Source of the DNA: Candidatus Zixiibacteriota bacterium
Lineage (GTDB): Bacteria > Zixibacteria > MSB-5A5 > GN15 > FEB-12
DNA length: 15,931 nt
Direction of reading: 5' to 3'
Assembly (NCBI GenBank): GCA_041742355.1
Contig: JBGSIV010000144.1
Span: 1-15,931 of the forward strand
Shown here piece by piece: positions 1,670 to 15,931 of this stretch; the first letter of the stretch is position 1, and each line of letters opens with the position of its first letter. Both the position numbers and the translations under genes were made by a program. The notes under the pieces were generated by a model that saw only the letters and a list, made by a program, of their open reading frames with translations, did not search any database and had not been told where the DNA came from.

Positions 1670-2047
1670 GTGCTGCACAAACTCCTCTGGCTCGCCCTCG
1701 CCGGAGCGCTCGGAACCCTCGCCCGCTACGGCCTCGCGGGACTCGTCCACCGCGTCGACGGCATCTCGTTCCCCTGGGGAACCCTTGTCGTCAACATCAC
1801 CGGCTGCTTTCTCGCCGGCCTGATCTGGACCCTCTTCGAAAACCGCTGGCCCGTCACCGCCGACACCCGCATCGTGATTCTGATCGGCTTCCTCGGCGCC
1901 TTCACGACCTTCTCCGCCTTTATGCTCGAAACCGGCGAACTGGCCCGGTCAGGGGAGTGGCTCTACGCTCTGGCGAACATCGGCCTGCAGAATGTGCTGG
2001 GCTTTGCCGCGCTCTTCGCCGGCATCACGCTCGGCCGCCTTGCGTAA
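1670..2047 (+). CDS. crcB: Fluoride efflux channel CrcB/Fluc
   Basis: GTG 1670 follows SD AAGGAG (1654-1659). Fluc motifs GALGTLARY, FPWGTLVVNITGCF and GFLGAFTTFSAF are present; 125 aa. The track ORF starting at 1259 is over-extended. Confidence 0.95.
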   Translation: MLHKLLWLALAGALGTLARYGLAGLVHRVDGISFPWGTLVVNITGCFLAGLIWTLFENRWPVTADTRIVILIGFLGAFTTFSAFMLETGELARSGEWLYALANIGLQNVLGFAALFAGITLGRLA

Positions 2048-2062
2048 CGAAAGGGGACACGG

Positions 2063-2404
2063 ATGAAACTGCCTTCGGATGCCTTCCTGCTCCGGATCTT
2101 TATCGGCGAAAGCGACAAAGTCGGCCCCAAACCGCTCTACGAAGTCGTCGTCGAAGAGGCCCGCAAACGCGGCATGGCCGGCGCCACCGTCCTGCGCGGC
2201 TTCCTCGGCTTCGGCGCCAACAGCCGCATCCACACGGCTAAAGTTCTGCGCCTCTCCGAGGATCTGCCGATTGTCATTGAGATTGTCGATTCCGAAGAGA
2301 ACATCCGGGCGTTCCTGCCCGAGCTCGATGTGCTGATTAGAGAAGGACTGGTGACCCTGGAACGGGTGCAGGTGATTACCTACCGGCACAACCGGACCGA
2401 CTGA
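2063..2404 (+). CDS. DUF190 family PII-like protein
   Basis: Motifs LLRIFIGESD, GMAGATVLRG.LGFG and LSEDLPIVIEIVD. SD AAGGGG. This family is commonly adjacent to crcB. Confidence 0.9.
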   Translation: MKLPSDAFLLRIFIGESDKVGPKPLYEVVVEEARKRGMAGATVLRGFLGFGANSRIHTAKVLRLSEDLPIVIEIVDSEENIRAFLPELDVLIREGLVTLERVQVITYRHNRTD

Positions 2405-2416
2405 TCCGCCCGATGC

Positions 2417-4042
2417 CTACCGCACGTACGGCGCGGGATCGGTGATCCGCCCGTTAAGTGCTGTCGCTGCGGCCGTCGCCGGCGAACACAGGTACAACTC
2501 CGCCCCGAACTCCGCCGCTTTGCAGAATAACGCCGTATTGGTCGTCGCGAGGCACCGCTCGCCCGCCCCCAGTTGCTCGCCGAGGCGATCCCCGTACAAC
2601 CCCGCCGACGGATCCATGACCGTCGCGCCCGCCTCCACGAACACGCGAATCAACCCCTTCTTCAGCGCTTCAAGATAAACCGACCGCGAGGCCGGCACTA
2701 CCAGCACCCGGCAGTCGGCATGTACCTCTTTCCCCTTGAGGATATCCGCCGCCACCCGAAGGTCATCGAATCGGCCGTTCGTGCCCGTGCCGATCACGAC
2801 CATCTGCACCGTGAGGCCGTCCAGATCCTTTACCGCCCGCACCTCCTCGGTGCTGTTCGGGCCGGCAATCTGCGGCACCAGGGGATCGATATTGATCTGG
2901 AACATCTCGGTATATTCGGCATCCTTGTCTGAAAGCATCGCCTGGAAGTGGCTCCCGTTGCGCGGATTGAGATACCGCCGCGTCACCGCCTCGAACGGGC
3001 AGATAGCCCCTTTCGCCCCGAGGTCGGCGGCCGCGTTGCACAGCGTGATCCGCTCGCTGATCGTCATGTGCGAAATCGCCGGGCCATGGAACTCGATCAC
3101 CCGGTAATCCGCTTTCGACGCACCGAGACGCTTGAGCAGGTTCAGGATGATATCCCGCGTGTACACGCCGCGCGTCCGGCGGCCCGTTACGTCGATTCGG
3201 ATCGTCTCGGGCACCTTCAGCCAGATCCGCCCGCTCGCCCACACCGCCGCCATTTCCATCGGCGAAATCCCGGTCGAAAATGCCGACAGCGCGCCGTACG
3301 TCGTCGCGTACGCATCTGTCCCCACCACCAGTTGCCCCGGCGTCACGAGCCCGTGCTCGGCGACCAGCTGATGGCAGGCGCCCTCGTGCACATCGTAAAA
3401 CTGCTGGATCCCCTGCCGCCGCGCGAACTCCCGCACCGCCATGTAATCGCCCGCCGTGATGCAGCTGTCGCCTTCGCAACAGCGCGACAGGGAGATCGCT
3501 ATCCTCGACGGATTCCACACGTATTCGGTGCCGATCTCTTTGAAGTACCGCAGAACATCGGCGGCGTCGTGATGCGCCACCGTCAGATCCGGCTCGACCG
3601 TGACCAGATCGCCGATCTCAGCTTTTTCCTTCCCCGCCGCCCGCGCGATTATCTTCTGCGCCACTGTCTGCTTGCCGTACAGGCTGACCGCATGCCCGCG
3701 CTGCTTGAGCCCCGGCAGATTCAGCTCCAGCTGCTCAAGCTTCAGAAACGCCGGCTTCTCCTTGATCCCATACCGCCGCCGCCAGTTGTAAAACGCCGCC
3801 TTGGAAATCCCCAGCTCCAGCCCGCATCGATCGTCGTCGCCGAACCGCTCCCACAGGTTGCGCACCTCGGGCTCCGAGAACTTCGGCACCGAGTGTTTGG
3901 CGACATTCTTCTTCCGCCGCCAGTACGCCACGAGGTAGGCCGGCACACCGCCGAGCCGCTCGCCGATCTTTTCGTCGGTCTTGTACAGCTTCTGCAATTG
4001 CAGCAGCTCCGACTTGGTGGGGATCTTTTTGCGGCGCGCCAT
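2417..4042 (-). CDS. LeuC/HacA-family (aconitase-superfamily) large subunit homolog with N-terminal tandem HTH; catalytic and Fe-S motifs degenerate
   Basis: ATG 4042 (MARRKK) lies 1 nt after the HIT stop; 541 aa. LeuC-like segments include QTVAQKIIA, GACHQLV, WLKVPETIRI, ERITLCN, TNGRFDDLRVAA and YLCSPATAAATALNGRITDP. Residues ~10-95 form two HTH-like repeats. Confidence 0.88.
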   Translation of the reverse strand: MARRKKIPTKSELLQLQKLYKTDEKIGERLGGVPAYLVAYWRRKKNVAKHSVPKFSEPEVRNLWERFGDDDRCGLELGISKAAFYNWRRRYGIKEKPAFLKLEQLELNLPGLKQRGHAVSLYGKQTVAQKIIARAAGKEKAEIGDLVTVEPDLTVAHHDAADVLRYFKEIGTEYVWNPSRIAISLSRCCEGDSCITAGDYMAVREFARRQGIQQFYDVHEGACHQLVAEHGLVTPGQLVVGTDAYATTYGALSAFSTGISPMEMAAVWASGRIWLKVPETIRIDVTGRRTRGVYTRDIILNLLKRLGASKADYRVIEFHGPAISHMTISERITLCNAAADLGAKGAICPFEAVTRRYLNPRNGSHFQAMLSDKDAEYTEMFQINIDPLVPQIAGPNSTEEVRAVKDLDGLTVQMVVIGTGTNGRFDDLRVAADILKGKEVHADCRVLVVPASRSVYLEALKKGLIRVFVEAGATVMDPSAGLYGDRLGEQLGAGERCLATTNTALFCKAAEFGAELYLCSPATAAATALNGRITDPAPYVR

Positions 4043-4043
4043 A

Positions 4044-4544
4044 CTACTTTGCCGGCTCCTTCGTAAACTCGCGTCGCAGCAAGTCGTACACCCTGTCCAG
4101 CGGCACCGACATGATCTTCGTCTTGCCGACCACCGGCATGAAATTCGTATCCCCCACCCAGCGCGGCACCACGTGCATGTGCAGGTGCTCCGGAATGCCC
4201 GCGCCCGACTCACGCCCGATATTCATCCCGAGGTTGAACGACCGCGGATGGTACGCCTGCCGCATCATGCGCACCGTCAGGCGCGTCAGCTCGAAAAACT
4301 CCGCCGCTTCTTCGACGGTGAGATCCTCCAGCTCGCCAACATGACGGATCGGCACCACCATCGAGTGCCCCGGATTGTACGGGTACTTATTGATAATCAC
4401 CACGTTGAGGCGGCCACGGTGGACAATGAGGTTATCCACAGAATCCTCGTCTCGCCCGATGCGATTGCAAAACACGCAGCCGTCTTCCTTTTCGCCGAAA
4501 ACGAAGTCGGCTCGCCATGGCGCCCATATCGTATTGTCTTCCAT
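4044..4544 (-). CDS. HIT-family nucleotide hydrolase/phosphorylase (Ap4A phosphorylase-like)
   Basis: Motifs WAPWR, CVFC, NKYPYNPGH, FNLGMNIG, histidine triad HLHMH and PRWVGDTNFM. Confidence 0.92.
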   Translation of the reverse strand: MEDNTIWAPWRADFVFGEKEDGCVFCNRIGRDEDSVDNLIVHRGRLNVVIINKYPYNPGHSMVVPIRHVGELEDLTVEEAAEFFELTRLTVRMMRQAYHPRSFNLGMNIGRESGAGIPEHLHMHVVPRWVGDTNFMPVVGKTKIMSVPLDRVYDLLRREFTKEPAK

Positions 4545-4552
4545 AGGGCTGT

Positions 4553-4581
4553 AAAATAAGCAAATGAAGGCGGCCTGCCAA
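4553..4581 (-). promoter_or_regulatory. Putative sigma70 promoter giving a (near-)leaderless HIT / LeuC-like transcript
   Basis: Minus strand TTGGCA (4581-4576), 17 nt, TATTTT (4558-4553), then only 8 nt to ATG 4544 with no SD. Confidence 0.55.
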
Positions 4582-6243: not shown

Positions 6244-7200
6244 ATGCATTACCAGCCGCTCCCGCGACTCGATACCGATACCGGCGCCGTCCGTTCCTCG
6301 CTCTTGCCCCACTGCCGCCTCCGCAAAGGGGACATCTGGCGTGACCCGCTCGGTCGCCATATCGTCGCCTGCGGCGATGCCGCCGACCCCGCGTTTATCC
6401 GCCGCCTCTTCGGGAAGCGCCGCGCCGCCCTTGCCATTCAGGATCCACCGTACAATCTCGTGATGGGGGAGAAGCTCCCCTCACTCGACTACACCGCCTG
6501 GTGCCGGCGCTGGATCGACACGACCTCCTCCATCCTCGCCGCCGACGCCGCCCTCTACATCTGGCTCGGCGCCGACCAGGACCACCACTTCCAGCCGCTG
6601 CCGCAGTTCATGGCGATGATGGCCGACACGCCGTTCGCCTCCCGCTCATTCATCACTATGCGCAACCAGCGCGGCTACGGTACCCAGCGCAACTGGATGG
6701 CCGTCCGCCAGGAACTGCTCTACTACACGAAAGGCAACCCGCCCTTCGCCGTGCAGTACACCGACATTCCGAAAGTCCTCCGCGGCTACTACAAAACTGT
6801 CGATGGTAAGCGCACCGAGAACACCGAGCGGGGGAGAGGCGATACTATCCGCCCCGGCAATGTCTGGGTCGACCTTCAGCAGGTATTCTACCGCCGCGAG
6901 GAAAATGTCAACGGCTGCTATGCACAGAAACCCCTCGCGGCCATCGAGCGTATCGTGATGGCTTCTTCGCGCACCGAGGATCTCGTCACCGATTTCTTCG
7001 CGCACTCGGGCACGACGTTAATCGCCTGCGAGCAGACCGGCCGTCTGTGTGTCACCTGCGACCTCGACCCGGTCTTCGCGGAGATCACGATCCGCCGCCT
7101 TGAACACTTCCGCACCACCGGGCGCACCGGCTGGCAAGCCGGGCACCCCTTTGAACAGGAACTACATCCGAATTCACCTTCTGTCGTTTCGTCTTTGTAA
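6244..7200 (+). CDS. Orphan DNA amino-methyltransferase (N6/N4 family, beta-class motif order)
   Basis: Motif IV DPPY near the N-terminus; QKP and motif I variant DFFAHSGTTL near the C-terminus. ATG 6244 is preferred over TTG 6205 because TTGCGG-18 nt-CATACT lies 6 nt upstream of it. Confidence 0.88.
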   Translation: MHYQPLPRLDTDTGAVRSSLLPHCRLRKGDIWRDPLGRHIVACGDAADPAFIRRLFGKRRAALAIQDPPYNLVMGEKLPSLDYTAWCRRWIDTTSSILAADAALYIWLGADQDHHFQPLPQFMAMMADTPFASRSFITMRNQRGYGTQRNWMAVRQELLYYTKGNPPFAVQYTDIPKVLRGYYKTVDGKRTENTERGRGDTIRPGNVWVDLQQVFYRREENVNGCYAQKPLAAIERIVMASSRTEDLVTDFFAHSGTTLIACEQTGRLCVTCDLDPVFAEITIRRLEHFRTTGRTGWQAGHPFEQELHPNSPSVVSSL

Positions 7201-7212
7201 GTTGGGGACAGC

Positions 7213-7701
7213 ATGAAAGATATCACCGGCACCGTGATCGTCGCCGGCGACGACATCACCACCGAAATGATTTGCCCTGCCAAACACCGCGCGGGGAAAC
7301 GCACCGAGATCGCCAAACACCTGCTTAAGGATCTGCCTGAATTCTCCGGCAAGAAACTGCCCGATAGCGCCATCATCGTGGCCGGCGACCGCTTCGGCCT
7401 CGGCGATGACGCCGAGAACACCGCCCGCGCCCTCCTGGCCGGCGGCGTGCGCTGCATCATCGCCCGATCCTTCCCGCGCGAGTTCTTCCGTCTCGCCATC
7501 AACGCCGGACTCCCGCTCATCACCGCCGACCTCGGCGGCCACTTCGATGGCGGCGAGCAGATCTGCGTCAACCTGCGCCGGGGGGTCATTATCATCGACG
7601 GGGGCGAGATCGAGGTCGGCAAATACTCCGAGCGCGTCGCCCGCATAGTTGAAAGCGGAGGGCTGATCAACGCCGTGCGCAAAGAGTTGGGGAAAGAGTA
7701 A
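7213..7701 (+). CDS. LeuD/HacB-family small (swivel) subunit homolog, catalytic motif degenerate
   Basis: GDDITTEMICPAKH (cf. GDNIDTDxIIPAxY), IIVAGDRFGLGDDAE (cf. IVAGxNFGCGSSRE) and IIARSFPREFFRLAINAGLP (cf. VIAxSFARIFFRNAINxGLP). SD GGGGA. Confidence 0.88.
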   Translation: MKDITGTVIVAGDDITTEMICPAKHRAGKRTEIAKHLLKDLPEFSGKKLPDSAIIVAGDRFGLGDDAENTARALLAGGVRCIIARSFPREFFRLAINAGLPLITADLGGHFDGGEQICVNLRRGVIIIDGGEIEVGKYSERVARIVESGGLINAVRKELGKE

Positions 7702-7744: not shown

Positions 7745-7807
7745 TTATCTTCGGTCTATAATAGCCATATTAAGTTTGTCGGTCCGTCAGATGTAAGACG
7801 GTTCACG

Positions 7808-8662
7808 TCAAAGTCTACCTTCGCCAGCGCGCCTCAGCAAAACTACACCGACCAATACGAGCATAATCCATGGTATAGCTGGGATCGAGAGTACGTTGCC
7901 CGGAATTGCATACCATGGGGAGAAATCCCACATTGGGTTCTGGGGCGACCGAAAGACCTCAATCATCTTGATTGCAACGCCCAGTACGGCAAATAGACTA
8001 ATCCCGACAAATGCGCGACTAGCGGATCGTCCGAGCCAGGAAGTTTTGCCGAGTGCAGCAGCAAACGACGCTGTCGCAAGATAAGTCAGCACCGCGCCAA
8101 AGAACAGCGCGACCAAAGACATCTCGTCCAGCATGGGGTTTGTAGAGTTCGCCTGTTGTGAAACAGCGCGCTCAATCGCACGATACTCAATTAAAGAGAT
8201 GGAAGTGAAGATGGCGTAAAGTGGGAAGGCGAATATGATCGCAGCAAAACCGAGCGTTGAGTAAAAACGTTCGCCGGCTTCGCTCAGAGCTTGTCGGAGG
8301 ACCACCAGTCCGCCCGCGATCATAAGCGCATTGATTAGGAGAATAAGATAACGCAGCTGATTCTCTGACGGGGTCGCAAGTGGTGGCGCGCTGAAGCCGG
8401 CAAGGAAGGAAAAGAGAATCCAAGGCATGATCAGCAATCCTCCAGCAACAGCGAGCTTGCGACTATCCTCCGCCTCCGCTTTGATCGCCGACACCCCAAG
8501 TTTCCACGCAGCAACACTGGCTACGATACATTGTATTAGAGCGATCGTGTAATATACAATTGGGCTGTATGTAGCACGCACGGCAAACATCACAGTTATC
8601 AAAACAAGATTGGCACATAGGATAAAGTAGCTTAGGCGACGATTGCTGTGACCTCCTGGCAT
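7808..8662 (-). CDS. Hypothetical polytopic membrane protein (~7-8 TM)
   Basis: 284-aa ORF with SD GAAGGG and many hydrophobic segments. No family recognised. Confidence 0.8.
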   Translation of the reverse strand: MPGGHSNRRLSYFILCANLVLITVMFAVRATYSPIVYYTIALIQCIVASVAAWKLGVSAIKAEAEDSRKLAVAGGLLIMPWILFSFLAGFSAPPLATPSENQLRYLILLINALMIAGGLVVLRQALSEAGERFYSTLGFAAIIFAFPLYAIFTSISLIEYRAIERAVSQQANSTNPMLDEMSLVALFFGAVLTYLATASFAAALGKTSWLGRSASRAFVGISLFAVLGVAIKMIEVFRSPQNPMWDFSPWYAIPGNVLSIPAIPWIMLVLVGVVLLRRAGEGRL

Positions 8663-8735
8663 ATGTTGTTCCCTTCAGTTGGAAGTGCGTCCGCAGAGAA
8701 ACCGGACAATGTGATACTCTAATTTAAGAGCCACT

Positions 8736-8882
8736 TTATCCTAAGGCAACAGCTATCAATGATGAGAATCCTGTGCCTGGCAATCGGTTGTTTTCCGTCG
8801 AGTTCCGCCTATTCGAGCATACTGGAACCGAATAGCGCAGTCTAAGCTCACAGGAGTCTGGGGAGAGTGAGGGCGGGGCCGC
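8736..8882. repeat. Direct repeat copy A (att-like junction)
   Basis: Core 8849-8882 CACAGGAGTCTGGGGAGAGTGAGGGCGGGGCCGC is 30/34 identical to copy B and 27/34 to copy C. Weaker similarity extends leftward. Confidence 0.85.
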
Positions 8883-9058
8883 TTTATTCACGGGTCCCCA
8901 TACTCTACGATTAATCTGTTTTCCTTCCGGCAATTTCTCTAAGTTCTTGAAAGTCTCTTAATCCTCTCTTGGGACAGGGCAGGACAAGACAACAAACCCT
9001 CAGTCAATGACGGTGGAAAGTCTTGTAAGTACAGCGTAACGGATAAGTGTGCCATAAA

Positions 9059-10441
9059 CTACTGTTGTACGTCTCTCTCTGATTCGCGCTCTTGGGCAGC
9101 TTTGATTTGCTCCCAATTGACACTCTTCTCGATCGGCTGCCCATGTTCCTCAGGGCTTCTATACGTACCTCGTTCGACGACTGGTTTATCGATTTCAACC
9201 TGTAAGCGATGCTCCCGGGCGTATGCATCGCGACGAATACCGGTCACCTGCCAGGAAACTTCCACATTTGGGCTGTCGGTTCGAATGACGAAGCGGTTGC
9301 TAGTAATCTTCGCAGCGACAATCGCTTGAGCGAACTGACCAATTACCGTGAGCTGATACCGGAAATCCATGTTCAGTGCTTCAAAATACGCCGGAAGGGT
9401 CACAACGGCCATACCTTTGGTATCCGTCACTGTGATGCCGTCGTAGATGTTCTTCATGTCGGGCGACTCGACGAAACTGTGTTGAAGGTACTTGTTTCCC
9501 GGATCAAGGGGATGGTCGATCTTAAACGCGCCTGCGTTTTTTGTCAGCGTGCCGCCGATATCAACATTACCTGCGAAATAACCAGCATAGCCAGCGCCAG
9601 TGCCGATCTTCAATCCATAAATGGCAAAAGCAGAGGCGCCTGGTCCTGAAGCGGCAGCTCCGTATACGCCATACGACGCCCCAGAACTCTTTGAACTTCT
9701 TCCTGCTGAACCATAAATACCATATTGACTTGCTGTCGAAGTTGGGTCGTTTGCAACCGAGGCATAGACCCCATACCTGAGTCCACGACCATCTCCGATT
9801 GTATCACCTACCGCGTAGTATGCACCGTAAAGAATCCCCCCCAAGCTATTATGTAGATCGGAATAATACCCAAATCGAGCAGCGGAGGTACTGTAACTTC
9901 GCGTTGCTCGGATCAGGTAAGAGCTGCTGGGGCTAATTGAATCCCCAATTCTAATACCGTTATCGTCTGCTAGCATCGTGCTATCACCAATCTTGACTAC
10001 ACCACCAGTAAAGACTGCGTCACCGGTGATCGTGCCTCCCGATGCTCCATCCACAGAATTGACTCTGAATGCATAGCCAGTAGAAACAAGCGACGTGCGT
10101 GGAAGGAGCGTCTCGTTATTGAAGTTCACTTGCAAGTAAAGTGAATCGTATTTTGCAAACAAACTGTCCGGAATCGGATTCACACCGCCCATCATGCAAT
10201 TGAACAGCCCGCCAGTAGTCGTGACATTTACTCCTTCTTCCGACCAACGTAAACTCCCGACTGTCGGGTGATCCCAAATGAGAAATTTAACTGGATACGT
10301 GCCGTCCGGCACTAAATTACCTGAGGCGTCGGTGGCCCTTCCTTGATAACTGATTACTCTTGGCACGCCGGCTGTTGCCACGACCACCAACAGCCAACAA
10401 ACGATGATTGAGAGAACGAAGATTTTGTAGTGATGTCTCAT
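9059..10441 (-). CDS. Secreted/surface protein with N-terminal VPxxISYQG domain, GxYG-rich repeats and C-terminal FKIDHPLDP domain
   Basis: ATG 10441 follows SD GGGAG. Signal peptide MRHHYKIFVLSIIVCWLLVVVATA, repeats YGVYA/YGIYG/YGVYG/AIYG/YAGYFAG, and C-terminal FKIDHPLDPGNKYLQHSFVESPDMKNIYDG. The track start at 10540 is probably too long. Confidence 0.8.
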   Translation of the reverse strand: MRHHYKIFVLSIIVCWLLVVVATAGVPRVISYQGRATDASGNLVPDGTYPVKFLIWDHPTVGSLRWSEEGVNVTTTGGLFNCMMGGVNPIPDSLFAKYDSLYLQVNFNNETLLPRTSLVSTGYAFRVNSVDGASGGTITGDAVFTGGVVKIGDSTMLADDNGIRIGDSISPSSSYLIRATRSYSTSAARFGYYSDLHNSLGGILYGAYYAVGDTIGDGRGLRYGVYASVANDPTSTASQYGIYGSAGRSSKSSGASYGVYGAAASGPGASAFAIYGLKIGTGAGYAGYFAGNVDIGGTLTKNAGAFKIDHPLDPGNKYLQHSFVESPDMKNIYDGITVTDTKGMAVVTLPAYFEALNMDFRYQLTVIGQFAQAIVAAKITSNRFVIRTDSPNVEVSWQVTGIRRDAYAREHRLQVEIDKPVVERGTYRSPEEHGQPIEKSVNWEQIKAAQERESERDVQQ

Positions 10442-10577
10442 GACGTTACTCCCGGATATATATGAATCTGTGGGCTTGATTGCGATTCGGGATCGCTTGT
10501 GATGACGACAAAATTGGCAGAATGTACGAGCGCATGACAAGAGACCTTTCCAAAGGTAAGTAGGCTCGCTGTAATGA

Positions 10578-10586
10578 AATATAACA
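10578..10586 (-). promoter_or_regulatory. Possible extended -10 promoter for the 9059-10441 gene
   Basis: Minus strand TGT-TATATT, with TTGATT 15 nt upstream of the hexamer. Confidence 0.35.
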
Positions 10587-10626
10587 AAAGGCCTCGCTAA
10601 TCAAAGGCGGATTGTTGGGGAAGGGA

Positions 10627-10794
10627 TTACTGAATGCTTAGGTTGGAAGCCTGCCCGAATGCAGTCCGAATCAACGATGACGCTCCTCGCATTTGATTGC
10701 CTTCCATCGACTTCCGCTGACTCGGGTATAGTGAAACAGGATCGGAAACTGGAACACCACAGGAGTTTGGCGAAAGTGAGGTCGGGGCCGCCAT
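10627..10794. repeat. Direct repeat copy B (att-like junction, keeps terminal CCA)
   Basis: Core 10758-10793 CACAGGAGTTTGGCGAAAGTGAGGTCGGGGCCGCCA. The minus strand is a 55-aa ORF MAAPTSLSPNSCGV...SIQ. Confidence 0.85.
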
Positions 10795-10911
10795 TTCTTG
10801 CTCACTGAAAGGGTCTTCTTATTGGCTTCAGCTCAACCAAGACGATATATACCATTTTGGGGGAACGATTCAGAACATTGCGTGTCGCACTGAATCGAAT
10901 AGACACACTAT

Positions 10912-11817
10912 TCAAGGCCTATACTTATAAATCACAGCGGAACTGACCCAATGGGCGCTCAGACCCGCACCCGTATTTCTTAGAAAAAACAGATATTTCC
11001 CATCCCGAGTCACATTGGCTCCAACTTCATGGACGTACCGCTCATTGAGTTCTTCCATAGGTACGGCCTGAATCCAGGCGCCGGCAGCGTTCTTGAAGCT
11101 TATGTATAAATCTGCATACTTGATTTCTGATTTATTGTCTACACGGGACAGAATAAGATAACTCTCGTCAGGGGCAATGAATGGTTCATTATCGTTCGTT
11201 TCCCCGTTAATCGCAGGACCAAGAGCTTCTGGTTCGGCATATTCGCCGTCGACAAAACGGGACATATAAATGTCTCCGTCGCCGGTAGAGCTTGAACTGA
11301 AATACAAGTTTCCGTTATCAGCAACCGATACCTGCCAATGCAGACGCAGTCTATTTATTTTTTCACTCAGTTGTTGCGGCGCGCTCCAACCTTCTCCATC
11401 GCGCTCCATGAACCAGATATTTTCCTTGGGATCGGCGCCAGCACTTCTGGGTACCCTGGAATTGAAAAATAGACGTTTCCCGTCGGGTGTCAGGATGGGT
11501 GAATCGGACCAGTTAAGCTCCCTGGAAAATGCGAACTCCTTGGGAATGCTCCATACGCCATCTACTGTTGTGGAATAATGCATCCGAAAGCCGGCCATGG
11601 TTGACCAATATGCTTCCATCCCATCAGGCGTAAACACCGGACAGCCGTGTAGATCAGGTTCAATGATGCCTTGAGCAAAAACAAGCGGTTTCAAGTCTGG
11701 AGGTTTCTGCCCAAGATAGGGACCTGTCAGAACCGGGAAATCATCCTGCTGTGCGTTGACAATAGGAGTCAATATAGCGGAAACTACAATCAGAGCGCCA
11801 ATTGCAATTAATCTCAT
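10912..11817 (-). CDS. Secreted PD40/TolB-like beta-propeller protein
   Basis: Signal peptide, GPYLGQKPP, and PD40-like repeats PVFTPDG, PILTPDGKRLFFNS, PFIAPDESYLI and VTRDGKYLFF. Confidence 0.85.
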   Translation of the reverse strand: MRLIAIGALIVVSAILTPIVNAQQDDFPVLTGPYLGQKPPDLKPLVFAQGIIEPDLHGCPVFTPDGMEAYWSTMAGFRMHYSTTVDGVWSIPKEFAFSRELNWSDSPILTPDGKRLFFNSRVPRSAGADPKENIWFMERDGEGWSAPQQLSEKINRLRLHWQVSVADNGNLYFSSSSTGDGDIYMSRFVDGEYAEPEALGPAINGETNDNEPFIAPDESYLILSRVDNKSEIKYADLYISFKNAAGAWIQAVPMEELNERYVHEVGANVTRDGKYLFFLRNTGAGLSAHWVSSAVIYKYRP

Positions 11818-11877
11818 TGTTCGGTAACCTCGATTCTGTTCAATTATCTCCTACTACGTTAAAGAGAACGAGACGTT

Positions 11878-11986
11878 TCATTTCAGTTTATTAGCTTCCG
11901 ACGTGTTCCGGCTGGCGAGGAATAGCTCGATTTGACTTGAAATCTGAACTCCATAAAAGTTTGTGGAGAGTGATGTCGGGGCCGCC
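11878..11986. repeat. Direct repeat copy C (att-like junction)
   Basis: Core 11952-11985 CATAAAAGTTTGTGGAGAGTGATGTCGGGGCCGC is 27/34 identical to copies A and B. Confidence 0.8.
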
Positions 11987-12327
11987 CTTGTGTCCCGTTG
12001 TCTCTGTCCTCGGATTGTGGCCACAGCAATATCCGGCACCCCGCTTCCCCCAGCGACTCTGCCTGAGGTTCTGGCCCGGATCTCTCTCAATTCCCACTGA
12101 CGACTTTTCCTCCGCAGCGTTTGGTATTGCCGGCACGCGCCGAACTCCTGCAACCTCGACAGAGCGTGAGCGTAAGCGGGAGGAAAAGAGTCTTCTTACT
12201 CATGTCCATTCTTAGTTGAACAAACAGCCTCTCCCCACGTCTATAGTGCATAGCCGCCAGTTGCACCAGTTTGCCTATAGATGAGCCAAAGAGCGTAACA
12301 GGAGTTTCATCATCGAGGGTATTGCTA

Positions 12328-14064
12328 ATGAAGGACTATTGTGGTCGGGTGGCGATGCGGAGCGCACTGGCATTACTGCTGGCTGGATCCGCCGGAACCG
12401 CTGCGGACTTGCACAGGAACACTCTCTCGGCAGTACAAACGGACTCCGTCAGCTGCCGGCATGACTTCGGGGACAATGGTTTTGTCGGCACTTCAAGCGA
12501 GTGTGAAATCTACTACGGTCTGAATGACAGTCACGGGCACAGCTGGGTTCAGGAGAACAACCAGGGCGTCGTGGGTATCACGTACTTTCAACGGTTGGAA
12601 GATGGCAGTCAGAACGGCTCGCTGATATACAGGACAATTCATCCCGATGGGACCATAGAATCTGAAACGGTCGCTGAAGGCACTCGACTGCAACGATCGG
12701 TCTTGTTGTACGATTCACTCTCCATGCCGCACATCTTTGTGGCACAATCCGGCACCGGAGATCAGATTATTGAGCACTACTACAAAGGCGATTCGGGTCT
12801 GTGGCAGAGGGAAGAGGTATTCCACTTCTTCAGCTGGGGAGGTCGATACATTTACGAGTTGTCAGCCGATCTCGGGCCTGACAATTCCTTCCACCTGCTT
12901 GTGTTGAAGACGCAATCCGATGTCGATTCCGACGACTACTGGAATGCCTGGATGAACGCATCTCTGTTTCATATCTCAAATGCACCCGGCTTCTGGCGGA
13001 CAGATTTCATTTACAGTTACAATACGGCCTACACATATGATCATTACATCAAGTGCTCATGTCGCCAGGACATCGAGGTGGATCATGATGGCTATGTGCA
13101 TGTTGTCTTCTCGCAGCAGATAGTGGCTGTCGACGATCCCTCGAGACTCCTCTACGCGACGAACAAATCCGGCTCCTGGAAAATTGAGACGGCGCTCAGC
13201 AATGATTTCGGGGCCAGGGATGATGCGGGTTGGTTTCCCTCGCTGTGTCTCGACCGGCAGGGGACACCGTATGTCGCGTGCATGTATGTCAACCGGGTAT
13301 ATACCTATTCGGCCGTCTACTGCAAGCTCTTCCTGCTGCAGAGAGTGAGCGAGGGCGTCTGGCAGCGCCAGCTCGTTGCAGAGAGTGATGACGGGTATTA
13401 TGGCAGTGACGGCAGGCGTTATACGGGTGCTTTGTCGCATCTGGTGTTCGACCGCGACAACGTTCCCCACATACTCTTCTCCGATATCGCTTCCTCGCAC
13501 CGGACATACCAGCACCTGAACGTGGGCAACATAAGACACGCGGTGTACCGGGGCGGCGCCTGGAACCTAACAACGATCTATCGACAACCGCTGCCCATTG
13601 CTTTCCAGAACGCAACCGAGATGTTCGGAGAGTGCCTCGTCGTATCCGATCTGACCGATACCATACGCGTCATCGGGCAGGAACTGAAGGTTACCGGGCC
13701 GGGGGCATATTCCGTCGGACTTGTGGAGTTCGCATGGGCCGACATTGCGACATCGGCTTCCGATGAACCTGCGGCAAACTTGCCCGACCAGTTCTGCCTG
13801 ATCCAGAACTACCCGAACCCGTTCAACCAGGGGACGGTGATCGGGTACAGCCTCCCGACTCGATCACAGGTGACAATCGAGATCTTTGACATCCTCGGCC
13901 ACCTGGTCCGGACATTGGTAAATGGATCCAGGGCAGCCGGTTCATATTGGATAGAATGGGACGGAGTCGCTGACGGCGGAGCTGGCGCGGCTACCGGCGT
14001 GTATCTGTATCGTCTCCGGGCCGGCGATGTTGAGCAGACAAAGAAGATGTTGCTGATCAAGTAG
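12328..14064 (+). CDS. Secreted protein with beta-rich repeats and C-terminal FlgD-Ig / T9SS type-A-like sorting domain
   Basis: ATG 12328 follows GAGGG (alternative start 12355). Signal-like segment RSALALLLAGSAGTA. C-terminus QNYPNPFN...IFDILGHLVRTL...WDG...GVYLYRL...KKMLLIK. Confidence 0.82.
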   Translation: MKDYCGRVAMRSALALLLAGSAGTAADLHRNTLSAVQTDSVSCRHDFGDNGFVGTSSECEIYYGLNDSHGHSWVQENNQGVVGITYFQRLEDGSQNGSLIYRTIHPDGTIESETVAEGTRLQRSVLLYDSLSMPHIFVAQSGTGDQIIEHYYKGDSGLWQREEVFHFFSWGGRYIYELSADLGPDNSFHLLVLKTQSDVDSDDYWNAWMNASLFHISNAPGFWRTDFIYSYNTAYTYDHYIKCSCRQDIEVDHDGYVHVVFSQQIVAVDDPSRLLYATNKSGSWKIETALSNDFGARDDAGWFPSLCLDRQGTPYVACMYVNRVYTYSAVYCKLFLLQRVSEGVWQRQLVAESDDGYYGSDGRRYTGALSHLVFDRDNVPHILFSDIASSHRTYQHLNVGNIRHAVYRGGAWNLTTIYRQPLPIAFQNATEMFGECLVVSDLTDTIRVIGQELKVTGPGAYSVGLVEFAWADIATSASDEPAANLPDQFCLIQNYPNPFNQGTVIGYSLPTRSQVTIEIFDILGHLVRTLVNGSRAAGSYWIEWDGVADGGAGAATGVYLYRLRAGDVEQTKKMLLIK

Positions 14065-14183
14065 TGATGTTCAGCACATGGTCCTTGAACCAGGGGTTGG
14101 GGCCGCTTGGATCCGCAGTCAGAACGCCGTTGGCGGTTGGCGATGAGCGCAGACATTGTGGCGGCAATTGGGTCCCCCCGGTC

Positions 14184-14218
14184 AAAAAAAACAGGAGGCT
14201 GACCACGTCAACCTCCTG
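14184..14218 (-). terminator. Intrinsic terminator of katG
   Basis: Minus strand CAGGAGGTTGAC-GTG-GTCAGCCTCCTG followed by T8, starting 23 nt after the katG stop. Confidence 0.9.
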
Positions 14219-14241
14219 CTGAATAGTCCTCTTCTCCTGAT

Positions 14242-15931
<1,690 letters not shown>

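Follow-up and report, generated by a model that had tools for sequence, protein, structure and literature searches.

The 541-residue protein encoded on the minus strand of the window (the whole 15,931-nucleotide stretch of Candidatus Zixiibacteriota DNA that was analysed) combines a tandem helix-turn-helix (HTH) head, a short motif of the kind that binds the beta sliding clamp, and a LeuC/HacA-type aconitase-family body that is predicted to be catalytically dead. We regard the chances as about even that it represents a clamp-tethered, DNA-binding, single-copy core protein of the Zixibacteria, which would be built on a dead enzyme scaffold and would descend from an ancestor with two jobs. The initial annotation of the gene as an aconitase/LeuC-fold pseudoenzyme fused to a tandem HTH was borne out by sequence, alignment and predicted structure. 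The open reading frame (4042 to 2417, minus strand) comprises 541 residues without internal stops, and contains the following features:

2417 to 4042, minus strand: fusion gene, 541 amino acids, in the order HTH1, HTH2, QLELNL motif, linker, putatively dead LeuC/HacA-type body
3911 to 4015, minus strand: HTH unit 1 (residues 10-44), three helices, column conservation 0.78 (113 orthologues)
3770 to 3874, minus strand: HTH unit 2 (residues 57-91), three helices, column conservation 0.73 (113 orthologues)
3716 to 3733, minus strand: QLELNL (residues 104-109), which fits the hexameric beta-clamp-binding consensus QLxLx[LF] exactly
3677 to 3715, minus strand: variable, low-confidence linker of 13 residues (residues 110-122), conservation 0.21
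2432 to 3676, minus strand: aconitase-family large-subunit body (residues 123-537), 5 of 17 catalytic/cluster positions and none of the three Fe-S cysteines kept

The full-length AlphaFold2 model, computed from 150 alignment rows, had a mean pLDDT of 89.9, with values below 50 over residues 102-118. In the dead members of the family, conservation was 0.76-0.79 for the columns of head and motif versus 0.42-0.48 for those of the body, and the conserved body positions were mostly glycines, prolines and core structural residues, not pocket residues.

The body could be aligned with MJ0499 of M. jannaschii (PDB 4kp1) with an E value of 9e-94 and 37% identity, and it scored above the NCBIfam cut-offs of PRK00402 and TIGR01343. 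Its model matched 4kp1 with a TM-score of 0.90 by target length, such that the fold of aconitase domains 1-3 is present. The protein belongs to the three-domain LeuC/HacA type, and AcnA models scored far below cut-off. All of the motif substitutions listed in the initial annotation were present in the translated ORF, and each of them lay on the motif named when aligned with 4kp1: GTGTNGR (residues 418-424, nt 2791-2771) on GSCTNGR, PSAGLYG (478-484) on PSCSACM, GTDAYA (241-246) on GADSHT, SRCC (186-189) on FDHQ, and NTALFCK (502-508) on NRNFRGR. The window copy retains none of the three [4Fe-4S] cysteines, and the substrate motifs DH, DSH and NRNFxGR read SR, DAY and NTALFCK. With 5 of 17 key positions kept, the body is, judged by its sequence, expected to be catalytically dead, as had been claimed. 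A dead sensor or scaffold domain had also been proposed; here the dead body stood, whereas a conserved ligand-sensing pocket did not, since the former active-site residues vary freely. Pocket residues differ within one family, and whole pocket loops are deleted in several families. The CCEGDSC patch, which had been considered as an alternative metal or redox site, was rejected because its cysteines are not conserved across the 117 copies (Cys188 in 8, Cys189 in 2 and Cys194 in 3 of them); the patch is private.

Residues 1-91 formed two three-helix units in both predicted models (pLDDT 86 over residues 10-44 and 57-91). The best structural matches of the head were HTH DNA-binding domains, with modest Z-scores for so small a fold, among them a mycobacteriophage repressor (Z 6.1, rmsd 2.0, 44 aligned residues) and the DNA-binding domain of GcrA (Z 5.5, rmsd 3.2, 47 aligned residues). 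A Foldseek search with the head yielded no HTH-domain match at E <= 0.001, and the ESM Atlas matches, all below 0.9 and of HTH type, served as leads only. By sequence, no solved homologue was found (the best match, with E 0.034, was unrelated), and the two repeats gave no BLASTP alignment with each other. The Pfam models HTH_Tnp_1 and HTH_23 were matched by 53 and 51, respectively, of the 57 family heads at E <= 0.1, which is below the curated cut-offs. Together, the fold into two three-helix units and the HTH structural neighbours confirmed the N-terminal tandem HTH that had been recognised initially, and it very probably binds DNA.

Searching 1.84 billion proteins with a profile of the 57 heads gave 411 matches at E <= 0.001, and many of these are arrays of the same HTH repeat. 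Many copies of this short repeat were also seen in P0140, P0149, P0154, P0160 and P0162, one of them behind an archaeal TFIIB domain. A search for the stand-alone head at shorter lengths gave 19 proteins, of which those named were partial Zixibacteria proteins, and two more distant short tandem-HTH proteins were without the clamp-like motif.

The hexameric clamp-binding consensus is published as QLxLx[LF] in the available passages of PMC11621423. For E. coli, the available part of a preprint (bioRxiv 10.64898/2026.05.27.728225) lists the hexamers QVELEF, QLVLGL and QLSLPL, and reports 10-20-fold weaker binding of hexamers to the clamp of B. subtilis than to that of E. coli. In the family analysed here, Gln104 was invariant in all 117 copies. 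At the motif position, the loose pattern Q[LMIV]x[LFM]x[LFIM] was present in 115 and the strict pattern QLxLx[LF] in 86 of the 117 copies, whereas at no other aligned position did the loose pattern occur in more than 3 of 117 sequences, and among the 117 HIT proteins it occurred in 1. The genome background per 1000 amino acids was 0.25 for the loose and 0.048 for the strict pattern. The motif was carried by 25 of 25 representative proteins with a body versus 7 of 122 without, some of which are fragments of the family. The motif segment was conserved like the HTHs, yet it lies in the region of pLDDT below 50, which is indirect evidence that it may be exposed and flexible, as is usual for short linear motifs. 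The conserved stretch, KPxxLKxxQL, is longer than the hexamer and includes the invariant residues P97 and L100; the alternating hydrophobic pattern could equally represent a beta-strand for another partner.

Residues 84-117 were modelled in complex with the DnaN protein that the same genome encodes at C243:9410-10513. The median score was 0.74, versus 0.52 for the best of three controls, an unrelated peptide with 41 confident contacts. The score passed a mark that is roughly applicable here and that had been attained by 116 of 157 pairs with solved structures and by 2 of 215 mismatched ones. At least 76% of the contacts were common to the runs, and the partner pLDDT was at least 51. In the model, the contacts were with DnaN positions 170-175, 241-246 and 362-368, which we take, in part from passages of PMC11621423, to be the known peptide pocket. 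Residues 104-109 contacted DnaN positions 170-175, 246 and 362-367, and these columns were invariant or nearly so among 30 Zixibacteria clamps. Because clamp-peptide complexes have already been solved, the pass may reflect memory and shows likeness, not binding. We consider clamp binding through QLELNL to be slightly favoured on this evidence. When the DnaE of the genome was scanned with our own patterns for a canonical clamp motif, only SHDLF was found, and the genome thus holds no positive control for use of the hexamer; SHDLF is without the Gln and is located at what we presume to be the internal clamp-motif place (G000:C164:10304-13747, L258).

The head was present in 194 of 201 Zixibacteria genomes (177 of 180 near-complete ones), with one match in all but one of them. 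An intact member supplied 17 cluster and substrate positions at which the orthologues were scored, after four sequences shorter than 440 amino acids had been dropped. All 22 sequences of families f11, f12, f16 and f17 kept 17 of 17 positions, including all three cysteines, whereas none of the 91 sequences of the other 14 families reached 16 of 17; in the dead members, the loop alignments may be off by one or two residues. In 14 of these 91 non-intact members the three cysteines were retained and substrate residues were lost. In the family of the window genome, none of 30 complete sequences keeps the three cysteines, so both HTH fusion and cysteine loss are conserved in close orthologues. The outcomes that the initial annotation had named as speaking against it, such as cysteines kept in close orthologues or an N-terminus that does not model as an HTH, did not arise among those that could be computed.

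Purifying selection on head and body was evident from the dN/dS ratios. For nine dead pairs, the median was 0.11 for the body and about 0.03 (0.029) for the head; for four intact pairs, it was 0.075 and 0.084, respectively, and the difference between the heads of dead and intact members had a p value of 0.03 with few pairs. The value for the body of the window copy compared with its closest relative was about 0.18-0.19. Dead bodies remain under purifying selection. The gene is no decaying pseudogene, given the occurrence of the head in 194 of 201 genomes, the neighbouring HIT gene at 117 of 117 loci and the selective constraint on both parts. Four of the 117 fetched copies were short, presumably owing to contig ends or breaks; short fusion copies of 250-322 amino acids are found at L057:5968-6954, L009 and L019.

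Enzymes of this type work with a small subunit, and one stand-alone LeuD-like gene, the only one found in the genome, lies in the window:

7213 to 7701, plus strand: degenerate small subunit of LeuD/HacB type, with GDDAE in place of the GSSRE motif

It reads DITTE and GLGDDAE where the motifs D-x-D/T-D and GSSRE would be expected. The gene occupies the same divergent position in both congeners and is probably the displaced cognate partner of the fusion body. In other families, small subunits were intact behind intact fusions and degenerate beside dead ones in f1, f4, f9 and f14. With the query used, a small subunit was not found in 51 of 72 genomes of the family, in 12 of 12 and 19 of 21 order-level genomes, or in most genomes of f1, f2 and f4. 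Family f8 is an exception, in which an intact small subunit of another subtype (YTYT) is located directly behind the dead body (L065:5845-6363, L087:4320-4871); its partner is probably a separate unfused large subunit encoded elsewhere. In the window, an N6/N4 DNA-methylase-family gene (6247-7200, plus strand) lies immediately upstream of the degenerate small subunit. From 7800 to 15931, the GC content drops from about 0.62 to 0.48-0.58; encoded here are unrelated proteins of secreted type (PD40, FlgD-Ig) and, up to the contig end, a catalase-peroxidase.

Unfused intact enzymes of 414-420 amino acids were 62-74% identical to the intact bodies and branched outside the fusions in the body tree, indicating that the intact state is ancestral. 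Among the best 80 of 596 loci of such unfused relatives, a small subunit was present in 64, one cluster of homoisocitrate-dehydrogenase-like enzymes in 30, CoA-ligase/citryl-CoA-lyase-like genes in 12, and PrpD in 4. Neither head nor HIT gene was found at the 78 non-Zixibacteria loci of this set, only at its 2 Zixibacteria loci. In the body tree the dead copies formed one long-branch clade; the tree of HIT plus head required two changes, and a single intact clade was rejected (p-AU 0.02, 34 of 58 rows).

None of the 23 intact-family genomes had a one-chain TIGR00139 isomerase, versus 126 of 178 others that did; in the window genome it appears to be split over two contig ends. In Zixibacteria, this enzyme sits among the same gene types as the unfused two-chain relatives. 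Of 50 genomes tested for the homoisocitrate-dehydrogenase-like dehydrogenase, 45 had it, among them 22 of the 23 intact-family genomes and the window genome. The one genome tested from each of f3, f6 and f10 had neither the dehydrogenase nor the one-chain enzyme. Most simply, the gene was retained while its catalytic role fell away, through replacement or through loss of the pathway; since kin genomes are not independent, few evolutionary events underlie the complementary distributions. An ancestor with two jobs would have lost catalysis, as the intact state is seen in 22 of 22 versus 0 of 91 sequences and most dead families have a replacement isomerase.

A separate intact leuCD, which the initial annotation had looked to in the genome, was not found, nor was a LeuA-type synthase (E <= 1e-30) or IlvD. 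LeuA/homocitrate-synthase-type genes at the same threshold were also absent from 21 of the 23 intact-family genomes and found in 2, and IlvD as well as LysX over cut-off were found in none of five genomes. Because LeuA-type synthases, IlvD and LysX were mostly or wholly not found, leucine synthesis is unlikely, and a role as a regulator of leucine or LysW-type lysine synthesis was rejected. Among the matches listed from a plasmid collection, only ordinary LeuC was seen. A recurring gene set without homocitrate/isopropylmalate synthase was observed at L199:3723-13231, L158:4603-9178, L132:5559-12688, L135:1688-13973 and L129:5524-8883. It contains an HDN-motif aconitase-type isomerase (two-chain or one-chain TIGR00139) and a homoisocitrate-dehydrogenase-like enzyme, together with PrpD, an HD-domain protein, and CoA-ligase plus citryl-CoA-lyase-like and saccharopine-dehydrogenase-like genes. 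Speculatively, this set could represent the alpha-aminoadipate route in reverse or another catabolic path for tricarboxylates.

The fusion gene is preceded by a gene of the HIT family:

4044 to 4544, minus strand: HIT-family nucleotide enzyme with an intact HLHMH motif, its stop codon 1 nt ahead of the fusion gene
4553 to 4581, minus strand: sigma-70-like promoter TTGGCA-17-TATTTT, 8 nt before the HIT start codon, consensus match only

The best NCBIfam match of the HIT protein was the Rv2613c-like ATP adenylyltransferase, below its cut-off. The HIT gene was present in 117 of 117 loci (117 genomes, 18 families), and in 61 of 61 long loci it was located upstream of the fusion gene on the same strand. 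HIT stop and fusion start mostly touch or overlap, with gaps of 0.1-1.2 kb in three families, and the histidine triad was intact among the HIT sequences listed. Three matches to sigma-70-like promoters were found versus 1.4 in shuffles, and the same layout was seen by eye in most families. Because the promoter sits 8 nt before the HIT start codon, the two-gene transcript is probably leaderless. A shared operator upstream of the operon was not found above shuffles in 114 regions, to which the site search was confined (the best dyad occurred in 3.8 of 18 families, versus 2.9-3.4 in five shuffles). The transcription regulator proposed in the initial annotation is one possibility. Near the HIT operon, a TrmA-type RNA methyltransferase was found in 28 of 61 loci, and a pair of a metallophosphoesterase and an SMC-like AAA protein also recurred (AAA gene in 17 of 61 loci); examples of these neighbours are L076:2192-5420, L053:2089-5330 and L037:3730-5160. 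In the window, a crcB (Fluc) plus DUF190 pair (1670-2404, plus strand) converges on the fusion gene, with stop codons 12 nt apart.

In the mechanism that we put forward, the tandem HTH would bind DNA and the QLxLxL/F motif right behind it would hold the beta sliding clamp (DnaN), such that the protein would act where clamps are loaded, on newly replicated or repaired DNA, in the manner of MuC or the T4 late factors. The output would be replication-coupled gene control or control of replication or repair. The protein may have originated when the head became fused with one component, the large subunit, of a two-subunit isomerase resembling homoaconitase, and four families would still run both jobs. 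In fourteen families, including that of the window genome, another enzyme would have taken over the isomerase step, or the pathway would have been lost; active site and small subunit would have decayed thereafter, the folded body being retained as a scaffold. This scaffold might serve oligomerisation or partner binding, perhaps of the co-translated HIT enzyme; the scaffold role and any link to HIT chemistry are perhaps real.

The motif may instead bind a partner other than the clamp (the second copy in a dimer, HIT, RNA polymerase or a sigma factor) on a DNA-binding scaffold, with HIT making or removing a nucleotide signal, e.g. Ap4A. This reading, to which we give roughly one chance in five, draws on the constant position of HIT upstream on the same strand (61 of 61), its presence in 117 of 117 loci with often overlapping stop and start, and on the conservation of KPxxLKxxQL beyond the hexamer, with P97 and L100 invariant. 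However, the invariant Gln and the exchange of L and F at positions 4 and 6 follow the pattern of the clamp consensus, and the HIT-fusion gaps of 0.1-1.2 kb in three families argue against obligatory co-translation. An HTH with a dead-enzyme sensor is a common design (MocR/GabR, ROK, SorC), and the protein could accordingly be a one-component transcription regulator in which the HTHs are controlled by the dead body as a sensor of a metabolite, a metal or the redox state. The three cysteines kept by 14 of 91 non-intact members make an Fe-S sensor stage possible in those lineages, and intact members could sense their substrate. Nevertheless, we judge such a regulator improbable: pocket residues vary freely within one family and loops are deleted in several, CCEGDSC is private, the small subunit was not found with the query used in 51 of 72, 12 of 12 and 19 of 21 genomes, the best upstream dyad did not reveal a shared operator (3.8 of 18 families versus 2.9-3.4 in shuffles), and leucine pathway genes were not found.

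Apo-aconitases bind RNA, and the IRP1-IRE structures 3snp and 3sn2 were among the fold matches, which would suit a cluster-free body that binds RNA with the HTHs as accessories. IRP binding uses a four-domain cleft, whereas domain 4 is here encoded by a gene of its own, which has decayed and is mostly missing, and the head is the most conserved part, making an IRP-like protein very improbable. Recent pseudogenisation, or a decaying leuC joined by chance to an HTH fragment of transposase type, would agree with the weak Pfam matches to HTH_Tnp_1 and the four short copies among 117. It is contradicted by the presence of the head in 194 of 201 genomes, by an open frame kept across 14 families and by the median dN/dS of 0.03 for head and 0.11 for body in nine dead pairs, and we give it next to no weight.

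The closest known relatives of the body are the large subunits of isopropylmalate isomerase/homoaconitase MJ0499/MJ1003 (PDB 4kp1, 4nqy, 4kp2), which share its fold and sequence. The two-subunit design with a LeuD/HacB partner is common to both, and all motifs are found in the 22 intact orthologues; the window protein differs by its added tandem HTH and clamp-like motif, its lack of cluster cysteines and its decayed small subunit. IRP1/IRP2 and certain bacterial aconitases moonlight on RNA. In these proteins the aconitase fold is likewise reused for nucleic-acid control, with active and cluster-less forms in one family, but here binding is assigned to the added HTH head and not to the cleft of the apo-enzyme, and the protein belongs to a different subfamily with a separate domain 4. 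HTH regulators with enzyme-derived domains and trigger enzymes include MocR/GabR, ROK, SorC, BirA and PutA; they share the design of a DNA-binding part plus enzyme domain, whereas the pocket of the window protein is not conserved as a sensor. The hexapeptides of Hda/HdaA, Pol IV and Pol III alpha (QLSLPL, QLVLGL, QVELEF, as given in the available part of the preprint) have the same motif sequence and, in the model, would occupy the same pocket, but the window protein is without an AAA+ or polymerase domain. MuC/Mor (PMC12867686) and T4 gp55/gp33 (PMC9690074) are, according to the available passages, DNA-binding proteins with a clamp-binding motif, and MuC of phage Mu needs its clamp motifs to activate transcription (PMC12867686); here, clamp binding is predicted. 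These are small phage proteins with pentamer-type motifs, whereas the window protein is the product of a chromosomal core gene with a hexamer-type motif, tandem HTHs and a body derived from an enzyme. No sequence relation to them was found; none of the 57 heads matched a Mor Pfam model, and Foldseek gave Mor (1rr7) only at E 0.71.

Searches of Pfam, NCBIfam and the literature revealed neither an HTH regulator family with an aconitase domain nor the combination of a clamp motif with an aconitase-family body in a cellular core gene, and no description of the fusion family was found in the literature covered, which leaves out most subscription papers. The design of HTH plus dead enzyme is itself known. 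In databases these proteins carry the name 3-isopropylmalate dehydratase, a misleading hint at leucine synthesis for genomes in which LeuA-type synthase and IlvD were not found. The family represents a natural enzyme-to-pseudoenzyme series, with intact, cysteine-only and fully dead orthologues in the same operon and the replacement enzyme visible. More tentatively, the protein may be a phylum-wide chromosomal DNA-binding factor that rides the clamp and ties gene control or chromosome handling to replication; the lineages would then preserve the path from two jobs via cysteine-only forms to a scaffold, and the co-transcribed HIT enzyme would feed in a nucleotide signal. Clamp-dependent transcription factors have so far been described from phages (T4, Mu), and a cellular core protein of this kind would, if true, represent a new setting for replication-coupled gene control.
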